The position numbers and the translations under genes are program-made. A stretch of 63,246 nt of DNA, filler included, from Atractiella rhizophila (lineage: Eukaryota), in assembly GCA_021432655.1 (NCBI GenBank). It is 5 parts of 5 records of this genome, joined end to end, with 100 filler letters (N's around TTAATTAATTAA, not from the genome) between each part and the next. Parts side by side here need not be neighbours in the genome. Positions count along the whole stretch, not along the records: positions 25,492 to 38,024 come from MU272003.1; 4 more parts are not named here. One strand, given 5' to 3'. The notes under the pieces were generated by a model that was not told where the DNA came from, did no database searches, and saw nothing but the letters and a program-made list of their open reading frames with translations. Positions 4,001 through 58,600 of this stretch are shown here, in pieces. How positions within the stretch are numbered: the first letter of the stretch is position 1; each line of letters opens with the position of its first letter.

Positions 4001-4899
4001 AGGTCACAGTAAACGAGAACCCACCGTGGCTTTGAAACCACTAATAACTGCCAACACACAGACATCCATGAACACGAATTGAGTCAACCAAGAAGAGGCA
4101 AACCAGTTGCCAAAGCTGCTCCTCATTGTGGTGTGGCGGTTGGTACAGCATCAGGAGAAATGGCTAGTTTCTCCTCCTGTTAGGACTTCGGAACTGCTTT
4201 TATGGTGAACCTTTTGTCTTGCTTACCACCTCGTTTGGGTGCTTTCAAAGCTCACAAGTGATGGACATTTGTGCATTCCCATTTCTCACGTTCTACGTCA
4301 TTTTGGTCTTGTGACTTTTCCCTTTCCGTTTTTCTACTTCTATTGCTTGATAATTGGCTCAAGGAACAGCGATGGGCTACAGTGATATTTCTCACAAATA
4401 TACAAGGCCCCTGCAGTGCGAATCCCATCGCTTTTGTGGCTCACACTTGCAGCGCTTACAGATCCGTATCTCGCTAAGAAGCTCTTGTTGGCTCACAGAA
4501 CCCTCGCAAGCCAAACCTCAACGCATGGGCCTAGAACCAAACACAACCACAGAGCAGTTTGAACACCTGAGTGCCCAGAGTGTTGGCAAAAGACAAAATG
4601 CGTTCGAATTACATATAGACCTTAACTGACACCTTCAAACCCACTTCTAGTCAGAGCGATACCAGAACTGGATCAGCGTGCTTGGATAACACAGCTCTTG
4701 CAGCGACAACGATCTCATGTGAGGGTGTCCTATAAATTTGCTGAACACTTCTTAAGTTTGATACTATGTTTCAAAATCCAGCGCAATACCCATGCAATAC
4801 TGTGATCAATTCCAAATTCAAATCGATGACCTGAAAGTCCTGAGCCTGAGCGTTCCTCGAAACTTGCAGCCGCTTATCGCACAGTACCGGTGTTGAAAT

Positions 4900-5000
4900 C
4901 AGTGTTCGCACTTTACTAGTAAAGCAACCCTGATCTGGCTTTACCATACTTTACCTGGTAAAGTAACCCTAGTAAAGGTAAAGCTCCGCTTTACTTACTG
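4900..5000. repeat. Cluster of CTTTAC/GTAAAG short inverted repeats, possibly a DNA-transposon end
   Basis: About 8 copies of CTTTAC or GTAAAG in 100 bp, starting at CAGTGTTCGCAC. Confidence 0.4.
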
Positions 5001-5124
5001 GCACGTGACTAAGTGAAGTGCCTCCAAATATCCTTGGTAAGTGGTGAAATTAATGCATCAGTGGTAGAACGTTATAAGGAGTATCTCAATAAGTAAGTAG
5101 TGGATAGTAATCGATGGAATTTTG

Positions 5125-6585
5125 ATGATCGGACTCGCAGATGAAGTTGCTGGAGCCACTACGGGCAGAAAACGCATACGTATGCTCGCCCCGATCCAAG
5201 AATACTCAAATCGTCTCGTATCCGATTCAAGGTCTCCTTTTATGGAACCTATTTCGTGGTCTCTTCATCCACTTGTAAACCTCCAAATGCAGGCAGCACT
5301 AGAAAATGCCGAAAAATTTGAAGCCAAAAAGGAACAAACGGTTTTTCTGCGCTTCCAAGAAGAATATCTGAATCTTGAGCAGGTCCTCTTCTCAAGTATG
5401 GAGCGCCTACCTGAACATCAGCGAGTCCTTGATTTCATCAGGGGCATGGGGTACTTCTTGTGTTTAAGCGGTTTCTCTTCAGCTCGTCTATTCACCGCAG
5501 CACTGAGTTTCAGCTACAGCCTCCATGAGGAGTCAGTCTTATCGGCTGAATTGATCTTCTTCCTTGGGAAAATAGAGACTCTAAAAGGTATCCTCCAGGA
5601 AGGAGTCCATCATCTAGAGAAAGCTAAGGAGATTCACGCAGTGGCTGGCGTTCGCAATAAAGTGGTTGACTGTCTCAATAGCCTAGGGCATATCCACTTT
5701 CTTTGCGGGAGGAACGATGAGGCTCTGGAGGCGTTCAAGAATGCAATGGAAATTTGCACTGAGATTGAGGACCGTGAGGGAGCCGCTGGCTGCTTCAAGG
5801 GTATCGGAGACATCCATTTTCGATATGGAAGGAATGATAAGGCTGTGAAGGCGTTTCAGTAGGCGAGGAAGATTTACGTTGACGTGGGGAATCGCAGTGC
5901 ATTGGCCGAGTGCATAAGGAGCATGGGAGAGGTTGAGGGTAGACGGGGGAGGAACGCAGAGGCTCTGACTGCGTTTCAAGAGGCGAAGGAGATTCACTTC
6001 GAAGTCGGGTCCCGAGGGGGGATAGGCGACTGTGTCCACCACTTAGGACTTATCTTTTTGGCCTGCAGGCAGAGCGATGAAGCTCTGAAGAGTTTCAAGG
6101 AGGCGAAGAAGATTTACACCGAGTTCGGTTCCCGCCGAGGAGTGGCTCACAGCAGTCATAGGATCGGAGACACCGAGTTTCGGTTAGGGAGGAACAATGA
6201 GGCTATGAAGGCATTCCAGGAGGCCAAGGTGATTTATGAAGAGGTAGGTTCTCCCGCGGTATGCGACTGTGTCCAGGCAGTCGGAATGGCCGAGTTGCGA
6301 CGCAGGAGGGTGGATTAGGCTCTTAAAGCTTTGTGAGAGGCGAAGGAGATTTATACAAAGGTTGGGTCTCGCCATGGAGCGGCCGACTGTGCGAAGGCCA
6401 TAGGAGAGGCCGAGTTTGGGCGGGGTAAAACCGATGAGGCGCGGTAGTCGTTCCAAGAGGCGAAGAAGATTTACATGGAGATAGAATTCCACATGGGAGT
6501 AGCTAACTGCATCAGGCAGATCGGCATTGTCGACTTTCGATGTGGGAGGAGCGATGAGGCTTTGAAGGCGTTCAAGGAGGCGAAG
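5125..6585 (+). pseudogene. TPR-repeat protein (fungal NLR-like sensor array) with in-frame stops, 3' truncated
   Basis: At least 8 tandem 120-nt (40-aa) units GR(N)DEALxAFxEAKxIxxExG; stops TAG 5860, TAG 6316, TGA 6334, TAG 6445; no frameshift. Confidence 0.8.
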
Positions 6586-12670: not shown

Positions 12671-12770
12671 NNNNNNNNNNNNNNNNNNNNNNNNNNNNNN
12701 NNNNNNNNNNNNNNTTAATTAATTAANNNNNNNNNNNNNNNNNNNNNNNNNNNNNNNNNNNNNNNNNNNN
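12671..12770. other. Artificial scaffold linker N44-TTAATTAATTAA-N44
   Basis: Six-frame-stop 12-mer centred in a 100-nt N gap. Confidence 0.97.
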
Positions 12771-25391: not shown

Positions 25392-25491
25392 NNNNNNNNN
25401 NNNNNNNNNNNNNNNNNNNNNNNNNNNNNNNNNNNTTAATTAATTAANNNNNNNNNNNNNNNNNNNNNNNNNNNNNNNNNNNNNNNNNNNN
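25392..25491. other. Artificial scaffold linker
   Basis: N44-TTAATTAATTAA-N44. Confidence 0.97.
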
Positions 25492-28400
25492 CCTCTTCCA
25501 CTCCCGTTTTGTCTCTTCCTTGAAAGCTGCAATAAGTTCTTCCTGCTGTTTCAAGCTTTCCTGGACGCATTTGATATACCAATCCATGGCAGACATTTGC
25601 ATTTCGTCCTCCTTGGGTGGAGCGAAGGACGGTTGATCTGGTGGCGCTTCGTAAAGGGACGACGCAAGGTCAACTTTGAACGGTAGGATGTTCTTAGGGA
25701 AGACAGTAATGTTGACGCCGTCAGTCGACGGTGGTAGTTTCGTAATGGGCGAGTCAGTTTTCGTCTTCTTCACTGTGCTCTGTCCTGTTGGGGAAAAGAC
25801 GCCTTGCTTAAGGGGAGTGAGAGGTTCAGCCTCTGAATTAATGCCGCTTCTCAACTTGAGCTGCTTTCTGATAGTGCGCGGGTCATCTTCAGACTGAGTC
25901 GTGGAAGATGGCGGGTCAAAGCCTCGTCGCTTAGCTGATAGAACTTCGAAGCCGGTACTCGCAGTGGTAGCTTGAGTTGGCGGGGCAAATTTGGAGCCCT
26001 AGATACAGGAGTTAGGCAAAGCGAAGAAGATAGGATAGAATATACCTTCGAAGATTTTCGCTTCTGCTTCATCAAGACTTTGGCGACGTCGACATTCTCT
26101 TGGCTCTGAATCATATTTTAGCAAGAGAAGGAAGTGCAATACCGGAACGAACCGATGACACCTCATCCTCTGACAGGTCTAGGTCCCATTGTGGCGCTAC
26201 ATGTTTGATGGTAGAGTTGGTGGTTGTGAATTCCTTTTTCGAGTTCTGTTTTGCTTGCTAGACCGGATTTCAGACAGCTTTTCCCGTAAGATCAACAAGA
26301 CACTCACAGTTGCGGCATTCTCAAGCTCAGACCGCTTCATTTTTGGTCCCTTTGATACTTCGTCCTCCATCTCCATATCACCGGTAGCCTGCTCTCGCTG
26401 TCAGCGCATAACAAATAGAGAGAGGATCAGGTACTGAGGCTTGATCTAGATCGGAGTCAACAGGCATGTCTGATATTACATCGGTGGTATGACGGTGAGG
26501 AGCATGTGGCATTGTTCGAGCGACCTGTCATTTACATTCAGTTAAGTTAAAATGAGGATCGAACGACGTACATTGGAAGCCTGCCTATTTCGCGCTTTGG
26601 TCGTGCGCTCTGGAGGAGCAGAAGCGTCGCTAGCCTCAGCAAGCGCCTTACTCCTTGTCGTCCGCTCTGGGACAACGGAAGCATCCGACATCTCCCTCTC
26701 TACCTGAGCCTTGCTCCTCGTCTGCCTCATCGGCCGCTCATCCTTCGTATCCAGCTCGCTTTCCGTGACAGAGGACATCGCTGTATGTTCTGCGGACACG
26801 GCAAGTTGAGCTGCTTTCTTGCTCCTCGTTTTCTTCTGCGGAACAGCCTCCTCCTCCGTCTCAGCCACGCTATCAGGGAGGACGTTCAGACGTGATTCCT
26901 TTTTGGTCTTCCCCTTCGTGATGGGATGAACGGCAGATGTGTCCGAATCGACGTCTCTGGCGCGGGTGGATCGAGTTTGTCGCGTCGGTGGTTCATCAAA
27001 GTCACTTGCTGGGGCCGGTTGGGCTTTTTTCTTCCCTTTCTGCTTCACAGGAACTTGAACGGGGACTGATGCCATCTCTTCATCCTGTTCTTCCCTAGCG
27101 AGGACCACTTTCTTCCCCTTTGTTGAAGCCTTGGTGATGCCAGTCGGCCGCACTTCCTCTTCTTCCTCCGTCGGAGCACGATCAGCTGGTTTAGAAGACT
27201 TCCTTACAGACCGTTTAACCACGACAACTTCCTGTTCCTCGCTTTCATCTGAGACATCCAGCGCGAAAACTCCTCACACCTACTCTTTCCCTCCTTCTTC
27301 TCCTTGCTTCTCTACGAAGGTTCTTCAGCTTTATACTAATACACGTCCCTCTCCTGCAAGCTTCCACGTACCTCGTACTGTACCAGTTCCCCAGTCTTTA
27401 CTAAACACGCTGTGTCCACGCAAAGGAATGTAACAAACGCATTTCACCACCGAATTCCCATACAACGCTGGCCTTCTACCGTCGCCGACCCAAAATAAAA
27501 TTAGGAGAACTCTTTCCCCTACTGTGTCGAAGTACGGAAAAAACGCTCCGACGTGAACCTCCTACCCTCGGTAGTCTGCTGGGAAACCTTCTCGTGGCGG
27601 CGGCAAAGGGGTTGACAATGAAGAAGTGTAGAGGCAGGGGAAGAAGTCGGTGCCAGCAATGAAGTTTCGGCTTCGGAGGAAGCTTTGTCCGTTTGTTAGA
27701 GCTAAGGCGGCAGAGAGCGCTGAGAGAGCGTGGACGCTTTCGTTGCGCGTGTGCTTTCTTTCACCGCGGACTCGGTTGTCTTCTCCTCCTCCTTCTAAGC
27801 GAACGAAACCGAGGGGGAGGAGGGCGCTTTCGTTTTCGCAGTTTGGGCGCGCTTTGTTTCAGTGAGGGCATGGCTGACTACTACTCGAAGCTGGGGGGTG
27901 GAGGTGGTGGCTTTTGACGCCCCTCTTTCTTCCGCGGTGGCGAGAGAGGAGGAGGTGTTTTGCCTACTTCTCCGAATGCTGCTGCCATGACTTTACTCTT
28001 GCCTTGTTGGAGTTGGCGGCGTCTTCTGCTCCTCTGTCTGAGCCCGTTGGCGAAGACCACGACACCTTCTTTTCGTCCTTTCACGCCAACAACAATTCTT
28101 TCCTTGGTTCTTCTGCTTACGTCGCTAGTGGCTTCTCCTGCTCCGTGTTCTGCACGACGGTAACGGACGAGTCGGTTTTTTCGCCCGGTGGTCTCGTTTC
28201 TCTTCGTGACAGCAAGGTGGAGTTGTTCTATGGCTACCTCTTGTCCCGGAGCAAGGGCGATAAAGAGCGCAAGGCAAGCGTTGGGGCGGCTTTCGCTTTC
28301 GCTTCTTCTTCTGTCGTTAACTTTGTGTCATGCTTCTATACCTCCACCGGCACTTCCTGATACTACCTCTACCTCTAGTCCTCCTGAACCCACGGAGCTG

Positions 28401-28774
28401 TTCCCACTGCTCTTCGTCTTTCTCGAGGTACTCAAGCTTCTCGCCGGTACTACTACGGGTTAGCTCTAGTTCCTCGAACCGCCGGAGGAGAAGCTTTTTC
28501 TCGTCTTTTAGAAGAAGTTTTGCCTTGCCTCAGGACTGCCTGATGCTCTGTCTGAAACTCCTTCTCTAGTCTTTCGGTTCCTCAGCCTTCAGCAGACAGC
28601 GAAGCTTCGTGTCGTCTGTTTCGAGCAACGGGAGTAGCTTTTTCTTCGGATGGCAGCTACTACCACACCTTCTCCTCTCCCTCCTTCTTAAGTTCTTCTT
28701 CGGGCAGTCAGCGTTCAGCAGGCAACGAAGCTTCTTCTCCGTTTCATTAGAGGGCAGTAGTAGCTCCTTCTTCC
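25492..28774 (-). CDS. BIR1: Bir1/survivin-like chromosomal passenger protein; 27264-28774 is written in mirror orientation; both ends missing
   Basis: C-terminal helix QMSAMDWYIKCVQESLKQQEELIAAFKEE; long K/R/E/S/P low-complexity linker. The unreversed complement of 27474-27626 translates to a BIR domain: KMAAAGFYFNPLEKGDDTASCLFCEAALGGWEPSDDPLEEHRRRFPNCYFF. Confidence 0.85.
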
Positions 28775-29376
28775 NNNNNNNNNNNNNNNNNNNNNNNNNN
28801 NNNNNNNNNNNNNNNNNNNNNNNNNNNNNNNNNNNNNNNNNNNNNNNNNNNNNNNNNNNNNNNNNNNNNNNNNNNNNNNNNNNNNNNNNNNNNNNNNNNN
28901 NNNNNNNNNNNNNNNNNNNNNNNNNNNNNNNNNNNNNNNNNNNNNNNNNNNNNNNNNNNNNNNNNNNNNNNNNNNNNNNNNNNNNNNNNNNNNNNNNNNN
29001 NNNNNNNNNNNNNNNNNNNNNNNNNNNNNNNNNNNNNNNNNNNNNNNNNNNNNNNNNNNNNNNNNNNNNNNNNNNNNNNNNNNNNNNNNNNNNNNNNNNN
29101 NNNNNNNNNNNNNNNNNNNNNNNNNNNNNNNNNNNNNNNNNNNNNNNNNNNNNNNNNNNNNNNNNNNNNNNNNNNNNNNNNNNNNNNNNNNNNNNNNNNN
29201 NNNNNNNNNNNNNNNNNNNNNNNNNNNNNNNNNNNNNNNNNNNNNNNNNNNNNNNNNNNNNNNNNNNNNNNNNNNNNNNNNNNNNNNNNNNNNNNNNNNN
29301 NNNNNNNNNNNNNNNNNNNNNNNNNNNNNNNNNNNNNNNNNNTGCGGGTTGGAATTGTGTTTGTCTGGTTGCGCAG

Positions 29377-29510
29377 GTCGAGCATGGCCGGTTTGGATAT
29401 CGACAGGTTTTGGAGCTGGAAGCGCGTATTCGGATTGCAACAGGCTTTTCAATCCTGCTGCTATTCCTGGGTACAAGATTGTTGGACAGGAGGAAAAGAA
29501 ACCGTTATAG
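29377..29510 (+). CDS. MIC10: MICOS subunit Mic10, last exon (5' part in the gap)
   Basis: After a CAG acceptor: RAWPVWISTGFGAGSAYSDCNRLFNPAAIPGYKIVGQEEKKPL* with the GxGxG motif. Frame not in the ORF track. Confidence 0.85.
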
Positions 29511-31743
29511 TCTGGTGTTACATTTGGTATCGCTCATTTATCTCAAAATGTGCATTTTGCAGCACAGTTGACGTTGCAGGCAATTAGATTTTTGTTCTTG
29601 CTATCGACATGAGGTCACTTCTCTACCATGCGCGAGACATTTTGACTTGCTCATACACCTTTTTTCTCTTGCTGTTCATCACTTATGCTTGAGCTCTCAT
29701 TTTTACCAATGTGCAGGTCAAATAGCGCCTGCGATGCTTGTTGCGTCTAGGCAATTTCGTGGCGAATGCACGGAGAATGGAAAATTGCGAGAGCATCTCC
29801 TAGCTTTCCGCCAATTATCCAGGATTATCACGGTCACTTTGACCAAGTTATTTGGTGTATCGACTGTGAACAGATGCACTGAGGTCCTTGTTTAATAACT
29901 ACCATCGTAGCGGTGCCTTTGAGAATGATTTTGGGTTCCATACATTATAATTTTGCCCACCGAAACCGTCGTCGCAGTTCCTGCAATAGTTTTGTGTTCT
30001 ATTTCTTGTAATCTGCCTCGAAATTACCTCCGAAACCTCACCCAAATACACGAAATAAACGTGAAGCGTATTAAGCAGGTTGATCGTTTTCTTTTTGAAA
30101 TGAAAGGGGACCGAAGAAGGAGCCATGGAGTGAGAAGGAAACGAGGTCAATGCAGAGGAGACTTCACGCCACCGCGATATCCGGGAGTCTCTTGGGACAT
30201 CTCTGGCACTTGATTCCTACAATCTAGTGCAGCTTGACGAATTATTAGGAATTTATTACTTGCTCTCCACTAGCGTCCCAAAATTAATTTGCAGTAAGCG
30301 GGCCATGTGAGCCGCTGTGCTAAACATGGACAAACAAAGCACAGCCACTGCTGTTCTGCTCTTGGGATTGGATTGGAGCAGGGATTGGAGGAGCAATTTC
30401 GTAGACGGACCCAATTTTTCAAGTCCCAAAGCCATGGTTATGCGCCGCNNNNNNNNNNNNNNNNNNNNNNNNNNNNNNNNNNNNNNNNNNNNNNNNNNNN
30501 NNNNNNNNNNNNNNNNNNNNNNNNNNNNNNNNNNNNNNNNNNNNNNNNNNNNNNNNNNNNNNNNNNNNNNNNNNNNNNNNNNNNNNNNNNNNNNNNNNNN
30601 NNNNNNNNNNNNNNNNNNNNNNNNNNNNNNNNNNNNNNNNNNNNNNNNNNNNNNNNNNNNNNNNNNNNNNNNNNNNNNNNNNNNNNNNNNNNNNNNNNNN
30701 NNNNNNNNNNNNNNNNNNNNNNNNNNNNNNNNNNNNNNNNNNNNNNNNNNNNNNNNNNNNNNNNNNNNNNNNNNNNNNNNNNNNNNNNNNNNNNNNNNNN
30801 NNNNNNNNNNNNNNNNNNNNNNNNNNNNNNNNNNNNNNNNNNNNNNNNNNNNNNNNNNNNNNNNNNNNNNNNNNNNNNNNNNNNNNNNNNNNNNNNNNNN
30901 NNNNNNNNNNNNNNNNNNNNNNNNNNNNNNNNNNNNNNNNNNNNNNNNNNNNNNNNNNNNNNNNNNNNNNNNNNNNNNNNNNNNNNNNNNNNNNNNNNNN
31001 NNNNNNNNNNNNNNNNNNNNNNNNNNNNNNNNNNNNNNNNNNNNNNNNNNNNNNNNNNNNNNNNNNNNNNNNNNNNNNNNNNNNNNNNNNNNNNNNNNNN
31101 NNNNNNNNNNNNNNNNNNNNNNNNNNNNNNNNNNNNNNNNNNNNNNNNNNNNNNNNNNNNNNNNNNNNNNNNNNNNNNNNNNNNNNNNNNNNNNNNNNNN
31201 NNNNNNNNNNNNNNNNNNNNNNNNNNNNNNNNNNNNNNNNNNNNNNNNNNNNNNNNNNNNNNNNNNNNNNNNNNNNNNNNNNNNNNNNNNNNNNNNNNNN
31301 NNNNNNNNNNNNNNNNNNNNNNNNNNNNNNNNNNNNNNNNNNNNNNNNNNNNNNNAATCAGGAATCTCGAGCCTTACCAACAGTTCAAGGGTTTATTGGC
31401 AAACAAATAGGGTTTATGTGGTTTATGATATGTGTTGCCTATAAAATTCCAAGATCCATCCTGTATTTACTTATCTAGGCCAACAGTCATGACTGTGTTG
31501 GGGGTTGTTGTGTCAAGTGAGCTTTCTCGTTGTCGTACACCTTCGTTCGGCACTTCCTTCAAGTTAAGCTTCCTTACACTCCCGATGCCGTTCAGGTGTC
31601 ACTCGTGGCCTATCCTCATCTGCGCGAGACTTCCGTGTCGTGTCGGCAACCAACCCACCACCGAAACAGCAACGCGACGACTAAAGGCAGAGTGGACGCG
31701 CTTTGTGGGCAATAGTCTGGCACTCCGGCATATGTTTGGGTAG

Positions 31744-32308
31744 GCTCCGCGATTGTACCAGCAAATATATAACGTGCTTGAGCCTGTAAGCTTCACTCTC
31801 ACCACACCTGAAGAATTTGAATCATTGACCTTCTCCATACCAAAGCATCACTGCAAAAGAATGTTTCGCCCCCTGACGCAGTCCGTTTTCCAAGGCTCTT
31901 TTCGCTCACATGGCCCTTTGAACCGGCGACACTTCACGTCGGAAGGAATGCCAACAAATAAAAAGGGTGCGCCAACTTTTTTCCAGCCGCGTGGAACGGA
32001 GCTGATTTGGAAGACAAGGATTTCTTGGATTCAAGATACCGAGATGGCTAGCCTGGACTATAGCGATTGCAGGAACGATTGAATCAGGTTAGACATTTCG
32101 TTGTGTCATGAGAGTATGTTACTGATCCACCGGAGTAGCCTTCTGTAAGCAGTAAAGTTTTAACATGCCCCCTCCATCTGATTTTGGTTATTGGATCCCC
32201 TACATAGGGCTTAAAGTCTATCTCATGAAGCAAGGATCGGATGAGAGGAAGCGGTTAGAAAACGAAGGCGCAATGCAGGGCACTACCGGTGCAGGAGATC
32301 CAAAGTGA
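31744..32308 (+). CDS. Hypothetical protein, 3' exons
   Basis: 109-aa ORF after a TAG acceptor, then an intron-like break and an exon ending GTTGAGDPK*. No recognised motif. Confidence 0.35.
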
Positions 32309-32814
32309 CATGCTATTGCTCGACCTGGACGATTATTAGGAAGACTAATTAGTAGAAAGTCTCTTAACAGTCCGTCCTCCAATTAACATACATATTTTCC
32401 TGGTCGCGTACCTTTCGCATCCACTGTCTTTCGGACGATTATCACCTTTCTGAGCTTTATACCGCGTGAATTTTGGTGTTTAGATCTGCCATTTGCTGCC
32501 GTCTTGTCATCATTGGTGTTGGTGTTTGCCTAGGAAAGGTTTCACACAAAACAACCCTACATCATTAGAAAAAGGTTTCCTGCATCGGCATCATTGCTAG
32601 TTAACACATGGCATCTCAAGTTTTATTTAAGCAGCACTCACTACAGGCGTTACGGTCTTTAGGCACCTTTTTGATACTTCTGGCTTTAGAAACGAGCGAG
32701 CCTTGCTCCACATGAGGTTGCTCAATGCCGTACGGTCAAATAAAAGACGGCGCGAGAGTGAGACCGACGCAAACTGCACAGTTCACGTCTATTCGCCCTT
32801 CTAACTTCTGAGGC

Positions 32815-34395
32815 ATGTTGTTTTCTCTGACGACTGTGTTTGTCGCTTCTCTCGCGACTGGTGCTCTAAGCAAGCCCGTTCAGAGCTATAAACCGGAATC
32901 ATGCAACTCTGTAAGCCAGTTTATATTAAAGGTTTACATTACATTGTCACGGGACGCTGATGATGGGTGAACGTGTGTGTATCAGTTCTACTTTGACATC
33001 GAAGCCACATATGAACGCCTCAACTTCAATTTCACTCTCCCTACCACGAAAGTAGAGATACAAGCGCTTGTTGGCGGAATCTTTGCTGGAACCATCAATC
33101 CTGTCTCGGTATGAACATTTTATAGAGGGGTTGAAGCGTTTGAACCATTTGAACTTGGACAGGGATCCGAGAACGTAACCGATACGTACAGACATTTCGG
33201 GAAACTCTGTTATCCTCCCAGCCATGTCAAATCGAAACACCCGAATGCAATTCAAGTGTTGGTTCATGCAGGTTGGGAAGTGGAAGCTGAGTATGAAGTG
33301 TCATATCAGCCGGAGAAATACAACTATATCGACTATGCCACATCTCAAGGTAAGCTCATTGGAGAATGAGCATGAGGAGCTAATTTCATGATCGAAGGGT
33401 ACACCGTTTTTGCTTACGATCGATTGGGCCTTGGGAAGAGCGAGAAAATCGATGGAAGAAATATTCAACTGGCGCTAAATGTCGAGATTGTCCGACAAAT
33501 CATCACCAAATTAAGGAGTGGAACTTTTGGCCATGGACAACGCTGCAAATATGACCAGGTGAGTACCCATATCTAGAGACCAAAGGAAAGAATGCGACCA
33601 AATGCATACCCAACTTTTCACACACAGGTAGCACTCATGGGTCATTCAGCTGGATCAGCCATTGTGAATAGTGTCCTCGCGCACAGTCCTGAACTCATAG
33701 ACGCGGCAATCATGCTCGGTAAGCGATCACTATGATATTTAGGAGAGGTACTGACAATAAGATAGGTTATGGACACAACGTGAACCCAGACTTCATTACC
33801 GCCGCAGATATTGACGTGCCTTCTCGTAAGTCACGCCGACGTGATTCGAAGGCAGAGCTGAGAAAACTGATGCAGTTGCATCACCTCCGCTCAACTATCC
33901 TGCTTCTTTCGTTGCGATTTCGGGTATCGACGCCAAATTGGCTGCCTTCTACGCAAAGGAAGGGACATACGATCCCAAGGTCGCTAAGTTGACGTTCGAT
34001 ATTCCTGCACCTGCCGGCCTGGGAGAACTCATCACTCTTCTCCAAGGACAAGTAGTCGCAGAGAACTACAAAGGACATGCTGCTATCTTGATTGGGTATG
34101 CGCTTCGTTCTCTTGAGGAAAGGAAAAGCTCACTGCTGCCGGAACAGGGCTAATGACCTGGCATTTTGTCCTAATGGTTTCTGTGACGGGTTAGTGGTCA
34201 CCATTCGCCCCCTTTGAGCTATTCTGAATACGCCTGTACAGTGACGACAGTCTGGCTGGAGAGGCCGCTTACTTTCCCGCCGTCGCTTCCTTCAAAGTCA
34301 AAACGTTCAACAATACCGGACATGGCATTTTGAATCATTATTCATCGAAGGAAGTCCAGAAAGCTATCATCCAGTACTTTGACGGCGTTTTGTAG
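32815..34395 (+). CDS. Secreted alpha/beta hydrolase (many short exons)
   Basis: Signal peptide MLFSLTTVFVASLATGALS; YTVFAYDRLGLGKS; nucleophile elbow GHSAGS; C-terminal TGHGILNH. Confidence 0.8.
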
Positions 34396-36896
34396 ACTCC
34401 GTTAGTCAATATAAGGGTTTGAAAAGGTATCCCTAATGTTAGTTACATTTGAAGTAATACCGCGTGAGACGGTGAACTGCTCTGGGGATTTGAGGGATCG
34501 TTCCATCATAAAATACCAACAGGACGTTGAGAGGTTTGATTCCGAGTTCGAAATTAGGCGGGAGTATAAAACATAAAATACAGGACCCATGCTTCATCAT
34601 TACTCCTCCTTCTTCACCTTCTTCTTCCTGTCGGGACATTCAGATCTGCGCATGCGTGTCCCTAGAATTGCCTGCAAACACTCTTAAGACAGCCCAATGG
34701 AGAACACGGGGAAGGATACTGACGTCCCAATGAGTGAACCATGGTTGGGCAAAATTCTTCTTGATTCCGAAAGTCTGATGGTGGATATCATGATAGTCCG
34801 CATTGTTTCCACACATTAATTGGAAGGGGTCGAAAGGCAAAGCGTAGCCGCAATGATCGTCCACGGTTTTGGCGGTGCAAATACCAAAGAGGACGACAGC
34901 TTGACGGACGGACATGAATGACAATTGGTGAGCGACGACTCCTCCCAGACTGTCAAACAGGAAACCTTCGAGAGGATGATTGTACAAGGCCCCATAAGAG
35001 TAAGGAACGTAGAGGCGATGGTGCCAGGAATGAATGTGGCGATAAAGAAACTTGTTGGTGTGAAAGTATCGATGTAGAAAGTATTGCCATGTGTCCAAAA
35101 CAAAGCTAAATGTGTTGAGTTCAGCACCGAGAGACAAATGGCAAGGTTACAACTCACAATGCCCAAAGATATTGCGCAACTGGTACTCCCCACCAATACG
35201 TCCACCAGGTCAGGTTCTCTCCCTGACTGGTCCAAACGGATTTTGCAGTCCCTTCACCTAAAAGAGCGAACACAATGCGGCTGATCCACTTCGAATATGT
35301 GCTCATCTCGGCTGCATGGTTACGCGCTAACGCCTCCTCGTCGATGTACCACAGCCCGAGCATGGTCTGGAATACTTGCTGGAGCAGGACAGCTTTGACT
35401 ACTCCCCAACGTGTGACCGTATTTCGAGACTTGACTTCTTCGGACTCGTGAATCCTGTACTTCTCAAAGAAAGGCAGTTCAAGGGCGTCAATGACTGAAA
35501 ATATCCCTGAAACGAAAAATGCCGGAACAGGGCTAATGACCTGGCATTTTGTCCTAATGGTTTCTGTGACGGGTCAGTGGTCACCATTCGCCCCTTTGAG
35601 CTATTCTGAATACGCCTGTACAGTGACGACAGTCTGGCTGGAGAGGCCGCTTACTTTCCCGCCGTCGCTTCCTTCAAAGTCAAAACGTTCAACAATACCG
35701 GACATGGCATTTTGAATCATTATTCATCGAAGGAAGTCCAGAAAGCTATCATCCAGTACTTTGACGGCGTTTTGTAGACTCCGTTAGTCAATATAAGGGT
35801 TTGAAAAGGTATCCCTAATGTTATTTACATTTGAAGTAGTACGGGGTGAGACGGTGATCTGCGCCGGGGATGTGACGAATCGTTCCGTCATAAAATACCA
35901 ACAGGCCGTTGAGAGGTTTGATTCCGAGTTCGAAATTAGGCGGGTGTATAAAACATAAAATACAGGACCCATGTTTCATCATTACTCCTCCTTCTTCACC
36001 TTCTTCTTCCTGTCGGGACATTCAGATCTGCGCATGCGTGTCCCTAGAATTGCCTGCAAACACTCTTAAGACAGCTCAATGGAGAACACGAGGAAGGATA
36101 CTGACGTCCCAATGAGTGAACCATGGTTGGGCAAAATTCTTCTTGATTCCAAAAGTCTGATGGTGGATATCATGATAGTCCGCATTGTTTCCACACATTA
36201 ATTGGAAGGGGTCGAAGGGCAAAGCGTAGCCGCAATGATCGTCCACGGTTTTGGCGGTGCAAATGCCAAAGAGGACGACAGCTTGACGGACGGACATGAA
36301 TGACAATTGGTGAGCGACGACTCCTCCCAGACTGTCAAAGAGGAAACCTTCGAGAGGATGATTGTACAGGGCCCCATAAGAGTAAGGAACGTAGAGGCGA
36401 TGGTGCCAGGAATGAATGTGGCGATAAAGAAACTTGTTGGTGTGGAAGTATCGATGTAGAAAGTATTGCCATGTGTCCAAAACAAAGCTAAATGTTTTGA
36501 GTTCAGCACCGAGAGACAAATGGCAAGGTTACAACTCACAATGCCCAAAGATATTGCGCAACTGGTACTCCCCACCAATATGTCCACCAGGTCAAGTTCT
36601 CTCCTTGACTGATCCAAACGGATTTTGCAGTCCCTTCACCTAGAAGAGCAAAGACAATGCGACTGATCCACTTCGAATATGTGCTCATCTCGGCTGCATG
36701 GTTACGCGCTAACGCCTCCTCGTCGATGTACCACAGCCCGAGCATGGTCTGGAATACTTGCTGGAGCAGGACAGCTTTGACTACTCCCCAACGTGTGACC
36801 GTATTTCGAGACTTGACTTCTTCGGACTCGTGAATCCTGTACTTCTCAAAGAAAGGCAGTTCAAGGGCGTCAATGATTGAAAATATCCCTGAAACG
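34137..36896. repeat. Tandem ~1.38-kb duplication (34137-35514 and 35520-36896) of the hydrolase 3' end and SUR2 3' part
   Basis: Direct alignment at offset 1382-1383 with scattered substitutions. Confidence 0.95.
34600..35514 (-). pseudogene. SUR2: 5'-truncated second copy or allele of SUR2
   Basis: Near-identical to 35982-36896; lacks the first ~65 codons. Confidence 0.8.
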
Positions 36897-37090
36897 ATCC
36901 AGTAGGCAACAAATGGCGATATCACAGACATGTACTCGTCCGGGATTCCTGGTATGAGGGAAGGACGCTGGATATGATAGGAAGGATAGACCATCTCGGA
37001 GTTCGAGAAGACGAGCTCGTGCGTCGAGATATTCGAATAAGGCAGAACGCCTGGCATGGCACTTTTGAAGTCGACCGTAGCTTTTGACAT
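35982..37090 (-). CDS. SUR2: Sphinganine C4-hydroxylase
   Basis: DTWQYFLHR, HSWHHRLYVPYSYGALYNHPLEGF, KTVDDHCGY, YHDIHHQ (His boxes); ends KKVKKEE*. Confidence 0.95.
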
Positions 37091-37500
37091 TGACAATAAA
37101 ATCCTGGTGTCTTGAAAGAAGGGAGCGAGGTGAAATGAGTGCCAGTCTTCGGTGGCAAGACTTTGGATTGGTGTTCCCCTTCGCTCCCCGTTCGGACGTC
37201 GGCGGGTACAAACTCATGTGCTTCACATGACCAATTTCAATCTCAATCCAGAGAAGCAGCATCGACCATCTCCAGAGTGTCCTTTTCTTAACGATTAACG
37301 AACGACTATCCAGTTTCCCGACTGAAAATCCCACCCGAGGTCCTTTCTTTCGAGTCAAGCAAGGTCCGACCCCTATTGCGCGACTTTCACCGCTCTCTCC
37401 TCGTAATTTCTTTCAGCGACGACTTATAACGACACTTCTTCTTGCGGCTACATTCAAACAAAAATCCCACCTTCCGAACTCAGCAATTCACAAGTTCAGT

Positions 37501-37980
37501 ATGGGTCTATTCTCCTGCCAGTCACCAAACGCACACGATTCCTTGCCGAGGAGGAAGAGACCAGCAAAGTACAACATCTCCGACGATAAAGACGGTGTCT
37601 TCTCCCCTAAGCAGCTGCTGGAGAAGCCCAACTTCCCCTCCGAACATCAAGCGTCCGTCGAGGACTTCTCCCTACCACGTCCCCGCGATCCCGGAGCATT
37701 TGCAGCAGATTCGATCGGGAGATCGAAGAAATATGAAATCGACTTCTCGCCCACAGGAGGGATAGGCACAATTCGCAGGCAGGCCGGTAGAGCGCCAGGT
37801 CCAAGAGCTGCTACTGCTGGAAGAATTAGACCTGCTGGACCGAGACCTAGACCAGCAAGTAAGAATCTGGGAAGAAGTGGGACCGCGAAGAGGATTAGGG
37901 AGATGATTGGCAAACCTAAGGACTTTGTGCATAAGGCGCATGTGGGAGTTGGAGATCTGAAAGGCGTTAAGACACTCGAT
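37501..37980 (+). CDS. CRIB/PBD (Cdc42/Rac-binding) protein, 5' fragment
   Basis: MIGKPKDFVHKAHVGVGD CRIB motif; N-terminal MGLFSC could be a lipidation site; cut by scaffold end. Confidence 0.7.
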
Positions 37981-38024
37981 GTAAGTCTTTCTTTCATGAT
38001 TGGCTGAGGACTGTGAGTGACCGT

Positions 38025-38124
38025 NNNNNNNNNNNNNNNNNNNNNNNNNNNNNNNNNNNNNNNNNNNNTTAATTAATTAANNNNNNNNNNNNNNNNNNNN
38101 NNNNNNNNNNNNNNNNNNNNNNNN
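38025..38124. other. Artificial scaffold linker
   Basis: N44-TTAATTAATTAA-N44. Confidence 0.97.
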
Positions 38125-50646: not shown

Positions 50647-50746
50647 NNNNNNNNNNNNNNNNNNNNNNNNNNNNNNNNNNNNNNNNNNNNTTAATTAATT
50701 AANNNNNNNNNNNNNNNNNNNNNNNNNNNNNNNNNNNNNNNNNNNN
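50647..50746. other. Artificial scaffold linker
   Basis: N44-TTAATTAATTAA-N44. Confidence 0.97.
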
Positions 50747-53121
50747 ATGAGCGCGATGTCATCAGCAGAGAAGAGCGATGTGAAGGCATGGGAGATGAAC
50801 GTCACGTCTTGCTTACACATTGATGCTCTGGAGCAACAAGAAGGGAAGAAAATCGAGCCCGCAGGTTCGTCCTCGAAGATATTGTGGACGATCAGCATAC
50901 TAAGAGAGGAGGGAACAGGACTCGCCAAGTGCTCAGCTTGTGATCTCACCAGCAACCTCTGGCTTTGTTTAACATGCGGAAATCTCGCGTGTGGTCGACA
51001 GCAGTTTGGTGGGGTTCTAGGTAATGGACACGGAATGCAGCATTGGGAGACACATGCACATCCCGTCGCCGTCAAGCTTGGTACCATCACTCCTGAGGGC
51101 ACTGCAGGTACGTTTTCGCGCCAGCTTTATTCGGTGGAGAAAGTTGCTGATGCAATAAAGTAGATATCTATTGCTACCAGTGCGACGAGGAGCGGACAGA
51201 TCCCAAGCTGAAAGACCATTTGGCCAACTGGGGAATCGAGGTGGCGGCGCTGACCAAGACCGAGAAGTCTCTTACAGAACTGGTATATTCTCCTCATCAT
51301 CCCAGAAGGATGCTCATATTTGTGTTGCATTCATAGGAACTGGAACAAAATATGAAATTCGACTTTGCAATGACGGGAGAAGACGGGAAGGACCTTGAGC
51401 CTCTCTTCGGCGCTGGGCTCACAGGTCTACGGAACTTAGGAAACAGGTTCGCGCCATTGATTTCCAATCAGCCTCTCTAAATAAAAGTGCACAGTTGCTA
51501 CATGGCTTCCGTCCTCCAAACACTCTACTCGCTGCCTAAATTCAAAGACCGGTATCTTAACAACTACGTTGCACATGCTCTCGCTTGCAAGAAGCCTCCA
51601 GCGACCTGCGTAGAATGTCAGATGTCCAAAATCGCTGACGGCCTCCTGTCCGGTCGGTATTCTGTCCCGCGACCCCTCACGGAGGACACTCACGTTGGGG
51701 AGACGGACGAGAAGCGATTCCAAGAAGGAGTTCGACCTTCCGCTTTCAAGGGTTTGATAGGGAAGGATCATCCGGAGTTCTCGACGATGAGACAGCAGGA
51801 TGCGGATGAGTTCTTGAAGCATCTACTTAAGGTGTTGAAAGTGGATAATAAGCGGCTGGAAGGCGGCGCAAAGGGAGAGGGAGAGAAGGTCTTCGACCCG
51901 ACTGCTGTGTTCGGGTTTGGGATGCTTCATCGCTTACAATGTGGGGAGTGCAAAGGTGTAAGATATCGGACAGATGAGGTAGAGGCGTTGAGCATTCCGG
52001 TTCCTGCACGGGAGGTGAAGGCAGAGGTGGAGGAGAAGGATGAGAAGCCCAAGAAGGTGAAATACGAAGAAGTGAGATTGGAAGAGTGTCTCGACTCATT
52101 GACTGGGACGGAAGCGCTGGAGTATACATGTCCTAAGTGTGAAAAGAACGTGATCGCCACCCAGTGCGTGCCTAAATGCTTTTTCTTCAAGGAACCGAAT
52201 CTAACTGTATATGCAGGACCACCAAATTCTCCACTTTCCCTGACGTCCTCGCAATTCACGCCCGCCGCTTCCAACTCGTCAACTGGGTCCCTCAAAAGCT
52301 CGACATCCCGATACTCGTACCCTTCGACTCCATCAACATGGACAAATATCTCGGTCAAGGAAAACAAGCTGACGAAACGGACCTCCCTGATACTGATGGA
52401 CCCTCCACCCCCGAAGTGTCCTTCAACGCTGAAGCACTTGCACAGTTGGAGGCGATGGGATTCCCAACTCTCAGATGTCAGAAGGCACTACTGGCGACTG
52501 GAAATGCAGACCCGAATGCAGCGATGGAATGGTTGTTTGCCCATATGGACGATGCTGGTTCGGAGATCTTCTGCTCCTTTCAGGTTTTGTTATAATGTTG
52601 TTGAACAGACATCGATGAGCCCATCAAATCTGCAACTTCAGGAAAAAGAAGCGACGAACCGTCTGAAGAGCAAGTGGGCATGATAAGCGAGATGGGATTC
52701 ACGCTCGCTCAGGCCAGGAAAGCGCTTCGTGAGACGGGAGGGAACGCCGAACGAGCCATCGAATGGCTGTTCGCTCATCCGGACGACTCTGGGGAAGAGG
52801 ATATGACAGTCGATAGGCTACCTGAAGGATCAAGTTCGGTTATTGCCGGTTCAGCCATTCTACCAGCAAATTATCGGTTGAAGGCTTTCATTTCACATAA
52901 AGGCCCTTCGGTTCATTCGGGCCATTATGTAGCGCATATTTGGGAGGGAGAAGAAACCGGATGGGTGCTCTTCAACGATGAGAAAGTGCGTTCTTCGTAC
53001 AATTCAGAGAATACTTGTGCTAATGTGGCTACGTGAGCAGGTCGTGAGAGCGGAGGGGGGTGCTCAGAGCGCAAAGGATTTGGCGCCTTTCGCTTATGTC
53101 TATGTTTACGAAAGGATTTGA
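50747..53121 (+). CDS. UBP14: Ubiquitin-specific protease 14 / isopeptidase T (USP5-like), 5' truncated
   Basis: ZnF-UBP NLWLCLTCGNLACGRQQ; Cys box GLRNLGN|SCYMASVLQ; QQDADEF; two UBA domains (MGF..AMEWLF); His box HKGPSVHSGHYVAH. Confidence 0.95.
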
Positions 53122-53562
53122 AGGACAAGAACATGTATCAAATGGTGTGGTGTGTACGCAAAGGAAAATACAATTGCATGTAGAAACATAACATAGGTCG
53201 TAAAGTATCACGTGCGTTGGTCATCATCATCATCAGGGAGCGAATTGGCTCGTAAAAACATCGAACAGGGTTCTCCCTCTACCCACTCACGATCTCCCAT
53301 AAGAGGGACGATATGGGCTTCTGAGATTCTCTCGTGATTGGGGGTCGTTATTCTTTTCATTTGTTTTTCTTTCGGGGCGATTCCTGGTTATCACTTCAGC
53401 TGCAGCAAGTACGACTCAACAAGGGTCGAACAGTGTCGCTCCTTCAGTTAAAACGACCTGTACTTCTTAAAAAACGATAAAATCAATCAAGCAGGAGGTC
53501 AATATCTTATTCTTGCATTCTCATTGTAGCTTAGCTTCACTGGCAAATTGGTGGTCATCACG

Positions 53563-54519
53563 ATGAGTGCTTGGTCTGTAGCAGCAGCTAGCTATTCTTT
53601 ATCTCCAATTACGACTCTTCAATTCGACTTCCTCCAAGAATTATTATGGTCCGGAAATTCTCAAGGTTACGTCTCTTCATGGTTCACGACAGACGATTCC
53701 ACCTCTTCCACCTTGAATCGCTATACCTCTTACAAGGCTCACAATCTCTCTCAGACCCATCAAATCCTTTCTAACGATCGCGGAATCCTTTCTTTGGGAA
53801 TGGATTCGGTCAAGCTAGCTAATCGCAGGGGATTATGCCAATGGCAATACCAGGAACGAAACATCGCGTTGTCGAACATGGCACATTCTCCCATCAAGAA
53901 CAGCGAAGTCGTGGTCGCAGCCTCTTCCACTAACTCCCTTCTTTCATCCAGCCTCGCACATAGGCATGAACTCCTACTTTTAAATGTTGCGACTGGCACT
54001 TTGCTCAAACGGACAGGGATAACAAGCCCCACTTCCCATATCAGAACATCGAAGAATCTTCTTTGTTGTGCTCAGCTCGATGGGACGATTGTTCTGCGTG
54101 AACCGAGGGAATATAGGATCTCGAGGACTTTGCCTGCTCACACAGGAGGGATATCGGCTTTGGAAGTGGGAGAGAACACCCTTTACTCCCTGGGCTACAC
54201 GATCCGGTAACCTTTTTTCGTTCATTTCTTTCACAATAGGACTTCATGAGCTGGGATCACAGACAAGGAGTCCCAATCATTGATCCGCACGTCAAGATCT
54301 ACGATATCCGGGCGATGAAAGCTCTCGCTCCTGTACCAACCTCAATCTCTCCATCTTTTCTCAAGGTTCATCCAAAAAAGTCAAATAACATATATCTTGC
54401 TGCGACCGATGGTCGATGGAAGTATATTGATGTGGACAACCAAGGAGACTTCGAGTTCAATCACGTATGGTTCCTAGTTCCTCCAACCCGATTTTTCTCA
54501 CCAGTCCGAACAGGTAGAA
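53563..54519 (+). pseudogene. PAN2: Duplicate 5' fragment of PAN2 (probably assembly redundancy)
   Basis: Same 220-aa ORF as 55674-56336; ends at the gap. Confidence 0.8.
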
Positions 54520-54544: not shown

Positions 54545-55242
54545 CAACGCTGAAGCACTTGCACAGTTGGAGGCGATGGGATTCCCAACTCTCAGATGTC
54601 AGAAGGCACTACTGGCGACTGGAAATGCAGACCCGAATGCAGCGATGGAATGGTTGTTTGCCCATATGGACGATGCTGGTTCGGAGATCTTCTGCTCCTT
54701 TCAGGTTTGTTATAATGTTGATGAACAGACATCGATGAGCCCCATCAAATCTGCAACTTCAGGAAAAAGAAGCGACGAACCGTCTGAAGAGCAAGTGGGC
54801 ATGATAAGCGAGATGGGATTCACGCTCGCTCAGGCCAGGAAAGCGCTTCGTGAGACGGGAGGGAACGCCGAACGAGCCATCGAATGGCTGTTCGCTCATC
54901 CGGACGACTCTGGGGAAGAGGATATGACAGTCGATAGGCTACCTGAAGGATCAAGTTCGGTTATTGCCGGTTCAGCCATTCTACCAGCAAATTATCGGTT
55001 GAAGGCTTTCATTTCACATAAAGGCCCTTCGGTTCATTCGGGCCATTATGTAGCGCATATTTGGGAGGGAGAAGAAACCGGATGGGTGCTCTTCAACGAT
55101 GAGAAAGTGCGTTCTTCGTACAATTCAGAGAATACTTGTGCTAATGTGGCTACGTGAGCAGGTCGTGAGAGCGGAGGGGGGTGCTCAGAGCGCAAAGGAT
55201 TTGGCGCCTTTCGCTTATGTCTATGTTTACGAAAGGATTTGA
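54545..55242 (+). pseudogene. UBP14: Duplicate 3' fragment of UBP14 (probably assembly redundancy)
   Basis: Near-identical to 52424-53121. Confidence 0.8.
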
Positions 55243-55688
55243 AGGACAAGAACATGTATCAAATGGTGTGCGCCAACAGTGTACGCAAAGGAAATACAAT
55301 TGCATGTAGAAGCATAACATAGGTCGTAAAGTATCACGTGCGTTGGTCATCATCATCATCAGGGAGCGAATTGGCTCGTAAAAACATCGAACAGGGTTCT
55401 CCCTCTACCCACTCACGATCTCCCATAAGAGGGACGATATGGGCTTCTGAGATTCTCTCGTGATTGGGGGTCGTTATTCTTTTCATTTGTTTTTCTTTCG
55501 GGGCGATTCCTGGTTATCACTTCAGCTGCAGCAAGTACGACTCAACAAGGGTCGAACAGTGTCGCTCCTTCAGTTAAAACGACCTGTACTTCTTAAAAAA
55601 CGATAAAATCAATCAAGCAGGAGGTCAATATCTTATTCTTGCATTCTCATTGTAGCTTAGCTTCACTGGCAAATTGGTGGTCATCACG

Positions 55689-58600
55689 ATGAGTGCTTGG
55701 TCTGTAGCAGCAGCTAGCTATTCTTTATCTCCAATTACGACTCTTCAATTCGACTTCCTCCAAGAATTATTATGGTCCGGAAATTCTCAAGGTTACGTCT
55801 CTTCATGGTTCACGACAGACGATTCCACCTCTTCCACCTTGAATCGCTATACCTCTTACAAGGCTCACAATCTCTCTCAGACCCATCAAATCCTTTCTAA
55901 CGATCGCGGAATCCTTTCTTTGGGAATGGATTCGGTCAAGCTAGCTAATCGCAGGGGATTATGCCAATGGCAATACCAGGAACGAAACATCGCGTTGTCG
56001 AACATGGCACATTCTCCCATCAAGAACAGCGAAGTCGTGGTCGCAGCCTCTTCCACTAACTCCCTTCTTTCATCCAGCCTCGCACATAGGCATGAACTCC
56101 TACTTTTAAATGTTGCGACTGGCACTTTGCTCAAACGGACAGGGATAACAAGCCCCACTTCCCATATCAGAACATCGAAGAATCTTCTTTGTTGTGCTCA
56201 GCTCGATGGGACGATTGTTCTGCGTGAACCGAGGGAATATAGGATCTCGAGGACTTTGCCTGCTCACACAGGAGGGATATCGGCTTTGGAAGTGGGAGAG
56301 AACACCCTTTACTCCCTGGGCTACACGATCCGGTAACCTTTTCGTTCATTTCTTTCACAATAGGACTTCATGAGCTGGGATCACAGACAAGGAGTCCCAA
56401 TCATTGATCCGCACGTCAAGATCTACGATATCCGGGCGATGAAAGCTCTCGCTCCTGTACCAACCTCAATCTCTCCATCTTTTCTCAAGGTTCATCCAAA
56501 AAAGTCAAATAACATATATCTTGCTGCGACCGATGGTCGATGGAAGTATATTGATGTGGACAACCAAGGAGACTTCGAGTTCAATCACGTATGGTTCCTA
56601 GTTCCTCCAACCCGATTTTTCTCACCAGTCGAACAGGTAGAAGTCAACTCTTACCTCACAGCATTCGATATCTCCCCAACAGGCGACTATTTGGCATTTG
56701 CGGATGCAGAAGGCACCATCACATTGTGGTGTCACCCAGAGAGCGGCCCTAACTCCAGCCTGTACGTCAGTGAGATCGTCCTTCCAACTCCTCCAGAACC
56801 TATCCACAAGATTGCGTGGGATGATGCAACGTAAGTTGTTCCTTCCTGCTGGTATCAAAACCAACCCAAATACAGCCCATTGAGTTCGATCCCCATGCCG
56901 GAAGCTCGAGGTCCTCTACTTTCCGAATTTGCGCCGCAACATCTGAAGACGAAGTACTCCTTCCGGGCAGCGCCAAAGATCGATCCAGAAATTCTCGCCA
57001 ACGCGAAAACGGTTGACGGGGTGCGATATGCGACTTTACCCAAAAGGCAAATCCGTAACCAGGTCCCGCCTTTAGAAGCGAGCAGGACAGGAAGTGAGAG
57101 GAAGCTAGCTGTCCCTCTTTTCCGAAGCGAGAAAGAAAAGGAGCGTCAGAGAGATAAGGAGAGTCATGACAGGAAGAGGAAAGACTTAAAAGGAAAGGGC
57201 AAAATGAAGGTAAGTTGAGATTTGCAATGGACGAGAAAGCTGAAATGGTGTAGACAGGTGACGAAGAAGACGCCACAGAGGCAGATCTTACGCGAACATC
57301 TATACCTCCGTATTATGGAAAGGTCGAAATCAAATACAGCAAGTTTGGTATTGAAGATTTCGACTTTGGGTTTGTGTTTACGATTTGAATACAGCCCTGC
57401 TAAGTTTGACACAGGTTTTACAACAAGACCAAACTCAGCGGGTTAGAGACGCACGTCGTTAACTCTTACGTCAATCCAATCCTACAAGTCTTGCGCTTCA
57501 TTCCACCGTTTCGCCAAGTTGCCGCTTCTCACATTGCCGAGTCTTGCGCAAAAAACGGGTGTCTTCTGTGCGAACTCGGATTCTTGTTCAAGATGTTGAG
57601 GGATGCTAAGGGTCAGAACTGTCAAGCAAGCAACTTTTGCCGAGCGTTTACAGCTGATTTGAAAGGTATGTTGTACCCAGAGGAACCCAGCTTTGGCTGA
57701 AGTCCATCGTTCGGTAGCTGGCGCCTTTGGACTGTTGGATATAGACGAAGGAGCCTCCTCGAACGTTCCTTATTCTTCCCTGATCCAGCTTTTCAATCGG
57801 TACGTTGTCGAGACAACGAGCGTCGAATGCGACATTCCGAAGCCGGGGAAATACTGCTTGAATCGGTCCATGGTACATATGCAGACCTTGCCCAGCGTCA
57901 TCAAGCAACTTTTCGAGATGACTGCTCAAACAACTGAGATTTGTCAGACTTGCGGGAACAAAGCTTTTCGGGATTCTTCATCTCTCGTCACCGATCTGGT
58001 CTATCCTAGAAAGGCAAGCACGACTGCATATAACGTCCTTTACTGACTTCAACCAGCCCTTGTCCAACGAACCACCACCGGCGACCGACTTTCCTTCCAT
58101 TCTGCAACGGTCAATCAACCGCGAGAGCGTAGGGAACACGACTTGCGTTAATTGTCGTCGTCAATCACATCAGCAAAGCAAGAGAACTGTCTCCTCATCA
58201 TTACTGCCTCCGGTTTTGTCCATCAATAGTGGAGTTCAGGCACCAGAACAGCTTGAGGTCTGGCTCGATAGTCCGTCCAAAGGTCGCTTTCTTCAACCTC
58301 GAATCGAATTTTACAGGCTCGGTGAATCTATTGCGGTACGAAATGCTGCACAAACGGCAAGTAATACTGTGTATGAACTCAGGGCGAGTATCATTCTCTA
58401 CTTAGGCGATCTGCTTCTGAAATTATCACAGGCACTTGTCTTCCAAGTACAAACTGAAGAGGATCCAGCCCACTTGGTAGCTGCTATAAAAGGTATGAGG
58501 TGCCCCGCTGCATTATTATTCTGACAATGTGTCTGAAGTGCCAGCGGATTCAGATTCGGGGATCAAGAAGGATGCCTGGTACCTCTTCAATGATTTTTTG

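Follow-up and report, generated by a model that had tools for sequence, protein, structure and literature searches.

Bir1 and survivin bind INCENP/Sli15 and borealin through a C-terminal region or helix, and there are two yeast proteins with two BIR domains each. We take the BIR domain's (PF00653) conserved N-terminal portion to consist of Arg-x-x-Ser/Thr-Phe and a later Trp, followed by Ala-Gly-Phe before the zinc site. In the chromosomal passenger complex, yeast Bir1 corresponds to survivin (PMC5743930), and the spacing CX2CX16HX6C has been named as the BIR signature (PMC3630083). The locus reported here, from an assembly of the fungus Atractiella rhizophila, probably encodes a BIR-domain protein of the survivin/Bir1 type on the minus strand, judging from the sequence features given below, and a role as a chromosomal passenger complex subunit may be assigned to it. 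Its likeness to Bir1 and survivin lies in the same CX2CX16HX6C spacing and in an N-terminal BIR domain followed by a long tail. It differs from the two yeast proteins in that a single BIR domain is seen, and from Bir1 and survivin in that its low-complexity middle and its C-terminal exon have no detectable relatives.

Part of this gene is written in the assembly in an order that DNA does not produce. Inversion of double-stranded DNA gives a reverse complement and never a plain reversal, and we know of no DNA rearrangement that yields a plain reversal, given the polarity of the strands. The closest described assembly errors are false inversions, i.e., reverse-complemented contigs in draft assemblies, which likewise reflect a strand or orientation error at a contig or gap boundary; however, they leave genes readable on the other strand, whereas the block described here is readable on neither. 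The same transformation of the text is used in regulatory genomics, where reversed but not complemented controls are described (10.1101/2021.03.18.435942, PMC5909433). Those controls are deliberate, composition-matched negatives, while the block at 27264-28774 is an unintended error in a public assembly. Among the papers listed by phrase searches for reversed-but-not-complemented sequence, none deals with assembly errors, judging from titles and abstracts, a result that does not prove absence of a printed description.

The window, i.e., the whole stretch of DNA analysed (63,246 nt), consists of five scaffolds, the longest (12,670 nt) coming first and the shortest (12,500 nt) last. Between them are spacers (12671-12770, 25392-25491, 38025-38124 and 50647-50746), each made of 44 N, a 12-base linker with stops in all frames and another 44 N, and neighbours across the spacers are therefore unlinked in the genome. 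The block lies in the third scaffold (25492-38024), which holds two real gaps, one of 568 N (28775-29342) and one of 907 N (30449-31355). Pfam searches of long open reading frames elsewhere in the window recovered a ubiquitin hydrolase with UBA domains, an ankyrin-DHHC palmitoyltransferase, CBF/Mak21 and GNAT, hits that mark a eukaryotic, fungus-like gene set; the ankyrin protein had no match when compared with viral contigs. The features at issue are as follows.

27264..28774, no strand: plain-reversed block, delimited by mirror open frames, word asymmetry, codon score and the loose ends of relatives' contigs
28775..29342, no strand: gap of 568 N, adjoined by the block
27259..27264, no strand: joint; after 27259 the relatives' contigs go on with the reversed block, starting at its third letter

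The left edge of the block is uncertain by 4 nt (27260-27263). Reading the block backwards gives the true plus strand; the gene, which is on the minus strand, has as its sense strand the complement of 27264-28774 taken from left to right, hereafter the mirror reading.

The first-pass annotation had claimed that this segment makes sense as an unreversed complement and in no other way, and direct translation reproduces the peptide it quoted (block frame 0 over 27474-27626) as well as the end of its frame, with block frame 1 stop-free over 27886-28773. At 296 codons, this frame 1 stretch is the longest stop-free mirror stretch in the whole window, against 205 codons for the longest one outside the block, in a survey that listed 105 mirror stretches of at least 90 codons. 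The accompanying statement that none of the six ordinary frames makes sense needs softening, as open stretches of 160 and 148 codons are present there, but none of the 12 ordinary-frame open reading frames in or over the block reaches the Pfam cut-off (best 14.2 bits, cut-off 27). We also find that the mirror reading ends at 28774 and joins in frame to 27263 downward, as had been proposed, with the joined frame staying open.

A complete BIR zinc site had been reported within 27474-27626, and the spacing Cys-x2-Cys-x16-His-x6-Cys is indeed found there, at 27534-27617. It is the one stop-free match to this pattern in the 12 readings of the window, and it falls in the complement reading. Shuffled controls contain at least one such match in 13 of 200 cases, and low-complexity DNA yields long open frames in many readings; both points lend something to the view that non-coding or low-complexity DNA gave this mirror reading by coincidence. 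Against it stand the statistics that follow, in which the sign of the word asymmetry flips over 1.5 kb and the mirror codon score is the best of 12 nowhere but in the block, and the 30 of 30 letters matched by the loose ends of relatives' contigs, which contradict a coincidence outright. We consider chance an exceedingly improbable explanation.

In real DNA, a word and its reverse complement have about the same count, whereas a word and its plain reversal are unequal, so that the direction of a text can be scored independently of any protein. We summed log(count of a 6-mer/count of the reversed 6-mer), using strand-symmetric counts from the other scaffolds. Across all 234 windows of 500 nt the score averages +47.9 (sd 27.0), while the five that lie inside the block are all negative (-22 to -50). 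With 250-nt windows, 9 of 10 are negative inside the block compared with 31 of 466 outside, and the result is common to word lengths of 4, 5 and 6. Along the contig 25492-28774, the 6-mer sums come to +135.6 over 1772 normal letters versus -130.5 over 1511 block letters, and the cumulative score peaks at 27186, no more than 80 nt from where the block edge was proposed. We also trained a codon-usage score on 2594 codons of Pfam-supported open reading frames of the other scaffolds, and it gives the same picture: in each part of the block the complement read from left to right ranks first of the 12 readings, the frames being those of the peptide (+8.1 and +18.5, with runners-up at +0.2 and -10.1), and the ordinary minus frame ranks first of 12 in two control exons. 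When this score is slid along the window, 5 of 390 positions have a mirror reading ahead of the other 11 at a score above 5, and all of them lie inside 27264-28774, indicating that there is no second mirrored coding block in the five scaffolds.

Short isolated stretches at 1001-1375, which is AT-rich with palindromic repeats, and at 4876-5125 also have strongly negative word-versus-reversed-word scores. Both were rejected as mirror spots, being short and flagged by the codon scan in neither case; given the silence of the scan, each is probably non-coding or repeat DNA of an ordinary kind. At 31356-31730, on the right flank of the 907-N gap, the word scores are weakly negative (-7 and -14). This signal has neither the strength nor the length to count as a second mirrored piece, which was likewise rejected, and the codon scan raises no flag there.

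Four public runs (X1 to X4) share words with 25492-28774, X1 and X2 coming from one sample and X3 from another sample under another organism label. Fewer than half of the 363 sampled words are present in each of them (0.34, 0.33, 0.25 and 0.06), no RNA run is listed as sharing these words, and X4 covers 25636-25883 only. Contigs of X1, X2 and X3 are 95 to 99% like the window over 25492-27259. One X1 contig (record 7) has 15 other letters in 969, or about 1.5% difference, so that it represents a relative and not the assembly's own reads. In X1 and X2, two contigs each are found at 25946-26058 and at 26202-26320, one with 0 to 1 and the other with 4 to 6 differences from the window, which suggests a heterozygous, dikaryotic or mixed sample.

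At 27259, one contig in each of X1, X2 and X3 departs from the window text and extends past this point by 371, 105 and 371 letters, respectively. These loose ends have a 30-letter consensus that is identical in the three runs and differs from the window's own text after 27259. Over the 30 letters compared (by eye), it agrees at 30 of 30 positions with the window taken in reverse from 28772 to 28743. The relatives' gene therefore runs from 27259 straight into the reversed block, as seen in all three runs with contigs reaching 27259 (two samples), and the flipped version of the block, which the first-pass annotation had proposed setting against reads, is the one that the contigs of X1 to X3 carry at this point. 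Further in, 27362-28774 has no cover in any of the four runs (13 of 13 depth bins at 0), a lack that proves nothing by itself.

The restored window text has 6 letters more than the relatives at the joint (two codons, in frame; by eye). The join drawn in the first-pass annotation thus stands in that the frame is open across it, but includes two codons that the relatives do not have. The 6-letter excess could be a strain indel in a low-complexity region, or the piece could start at 27260 with a 2-letter overlap. Together with the absence from the window of any second copy of the block, either as written or reversed, this offset could be read as a sign of a chimeric misjoin, that is, a real piece of genome from elsewhere that was also mis-written and does not belong beside 27263. 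Such a misjoin is difficult to reconcile with contigs of three runs that go directly from 27259 to the reverse of the block end, or with a reading frame and an amino acid composition that carry on across the joint, and we regard it as very improbable.

The provenance of the contigs bears on a different question, namely whether this strain might truly have the DNA as written. The sole point in favour of such a natural mirror segment is that the contigs in support belong to relatives and not to reads of the strain. It is outweighed by the fact that plain reversal is unknown among DNA rearrangements, by the un-mirrored order in the relatives and by the word and codon statistics of the block, which match this genome only after reversal, and the odds of a natural origin are in our view negligible. 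The word, codon, zinc-spacing and relatives' contig tests agree, and the block is therefore an artefact and not biology. We put at roughly 95% the probability that 27264-28774 is an assembly or gap-filling artefact whose restored text continues the minus-strand survivin/Bir1-type gene of 25492-27263. The limits of this reading are that the supporting contigs belong to relatives (about 1.5% different), with X1 and X2 being one sample; further points against it are the 6-letter offset at the joint, the two frame changes in the block and a normal part without a homologue.

As to how an artefact of this kind would arise, a real piece flanked by the contig end near 27260 on one side and the 568-N gap on the other would have entered the scaffold in the wrong letter order, either by being reversed without complementing or, with the same outcome, by a minus-oriented piece being complemented without reversing. 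The real genome would then carry the block backwards, and the restored block would continue the minus-strand gene of 25492-27263. The absence of N at the left edge and the sized gap on the right would fit a partial gap fill that extended the left contig, and a small contig merged by overlap would be an alternative route. A strand-handling or gap-filling error had been suggested from the sequence, and the relatives, which leave the window text at 27259 and continue into the reversed block end, bear this out. It is a more tentative idea, and on balance an unlikely one, that the block is the trace of a systematic bug in scaffolding or gap filling that writes minus-oriented pieces as complement only.

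Duplicated stretches are also present in the window. At 52424-54519 and 54545-56642 there are 2.1-kb direct copies, 99.3% identical, that end and start exactly at a 25-N gap, and this duplicate splits a UBP14-like gene (UCH at 51481-52680, UBA at 54546-55154). Probably an overlap was left unmerged or a haplotype uncollapsed here, and the duplicate constitutes a second gap-side artefact in the window besides the mirror block. In addition, a tandem direct duplicate of 1379 nt (34137-35515 and 35520-36897; 97.5% identical) has no gap between its copies and may be either real or a product of assembly.

The part of the gene that is written in normal orientation (25492-27263) has the following structure.

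26572..27263, minus strand: normal exon of the same gene, from relatives' contigs and the spliced frame
26525-26571, 26389-26434, 26258-26307, 26106-26152 and 25999-26045, minus strand: five introns, GT..AG, 46-50 nt, placed by the X3 contig joints
26435-26524, 26308-26388, 26153-26257, 26046-26105 and 25492-25998, minus strand: five further exons, all in phase 0

An X3 contig of 2003 letters omits five stretches of 46 to 50 nt, each of them GT..AG on the minus strand, and so behaves like a spliced transcript, the type of this run not being on record. The first-pass annotation had let the gene end with an open reading frame at 26542-27222. This is incorrect: the stop codon (26542-26544) sits in the 47-nt intron 26525-26571, and five spliced exons continue to 25492. 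Spliced, the normal part has six phase-0 exons with 511 open codons between them, and no stop closes the frame before the edge of the scaffold. The X3 contig extends 110 letters beyond 25492, and the C-terminus of the gene is missing from the scaffold, as the frame runs off its start.

Within the block, the gene model would be as follows, all in the mirror reading.

27313..27383, no strand: candidate ATG and putative first BIR part in mirror frame 1, with Arg-x-x-Thr-Phe ... Trp at 27346-27383
27384..27457, no strand: candidate intron A, GT..AG, either 27384-27445 (62 nt) or 27384-27457 (74 nt)
27474..27626, no strand: BIR core, with the Cys-x2-Cys-x16-His-x6-Cys site
27869..27932, no strand: second frame change (0 to 1), with candidate intron B, GT..AG, either 27869-27929 (61 nt) or 27869-27932 (64 nt)
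27931..28773, no strand: 281-codon Lys/Arg/Ser/Glu-rich stretch

Both N-terminal pieces of the BIR domain are visible but lie in two frames (27346-27383 and from 27474 onward), and candidate intron A, of 62 or 74 nt, would link mirror frame 1 to frame 0. The second frame change may be either intron B or a one-base error within 27886-27965. The apparent single-base indels of the first-pass annotation are accordingly two frame changes, each of which can be bridged by a candidate GT..AG intron of 61 to 74 nt, with the second maybe being a one-base error. The composition of the stretch at 27931-28773 resembles that of the normal exon at 26572-27261, both being rich in Lys, Arg, Ser and Glu. Starting from the ATG at 27313, the mirror block and the spliced normal exons together give 944 to 958 open codons in eight of eight intron combinations, and the gene start may therefore lie within the block, ahead of the BIR domain, rather than in the N gap. 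A single restored BIR1 gene with its 5' end in the N gap had been proposed; the continuous gene holds, but its start need not be in the gap, with ATG 27313 lying in the block.

The gene would thus be laid out as one N-terminal BIR zinc domain, about 800 low-complexity residues rich in Lys, Arg, Ser and Glu, and a C-terminal part that is off the scaffold. The size of about 950 codons resembles that of yeast Bir1, and together with an N-terminal BIR domain and a long disordered tail it fits fungal Bir1. With respect to the normal part, searches with its 239 residues found 0 relatives among 1.84 billion representatives and 0 among longer proteins, and a test of orthology to known Bir1 on the same residues gave no match. 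The last exon (25492-25998) belongs to no Pfam family and has 0 relatives among longer proteins. Searches of metagenome contigs with the normal part of the gene returned 184 and 524 pattern matches, none of which was confirmed, and an Atlas search with the normal part including the last exon gave a best score of 0.78, with all scores below 0.8, which is a lead at most.

The mirror DNA described here is not a biological feature, and the practical interest of the block is limited to assembly quality control. Counts of k-mers versus reversed k-mers, together with a codon score over 12 readings, could screen whole assemblies with no need for a reference; in this window, the screen picked exactly the block at 27264-28774. 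If a systematic bug were behind it, many gap flanks in this assembly and in others from the same pipeline would hide genes in mirror blocks, and these would be findable in bulk by the word-versus-reversed-word test. Six-frame searches and gene finders miss a mirror block altogether, and this one hides the BIR part of the gene; read mapping would show a hole over it, and an essential single-copy cell-division gene would be counted as truncated or as being without its defining domain. For the biology of the organism the consequence is small, as A. rhizophila has an ordinary gene of what is probably the Bir1/survivin type.
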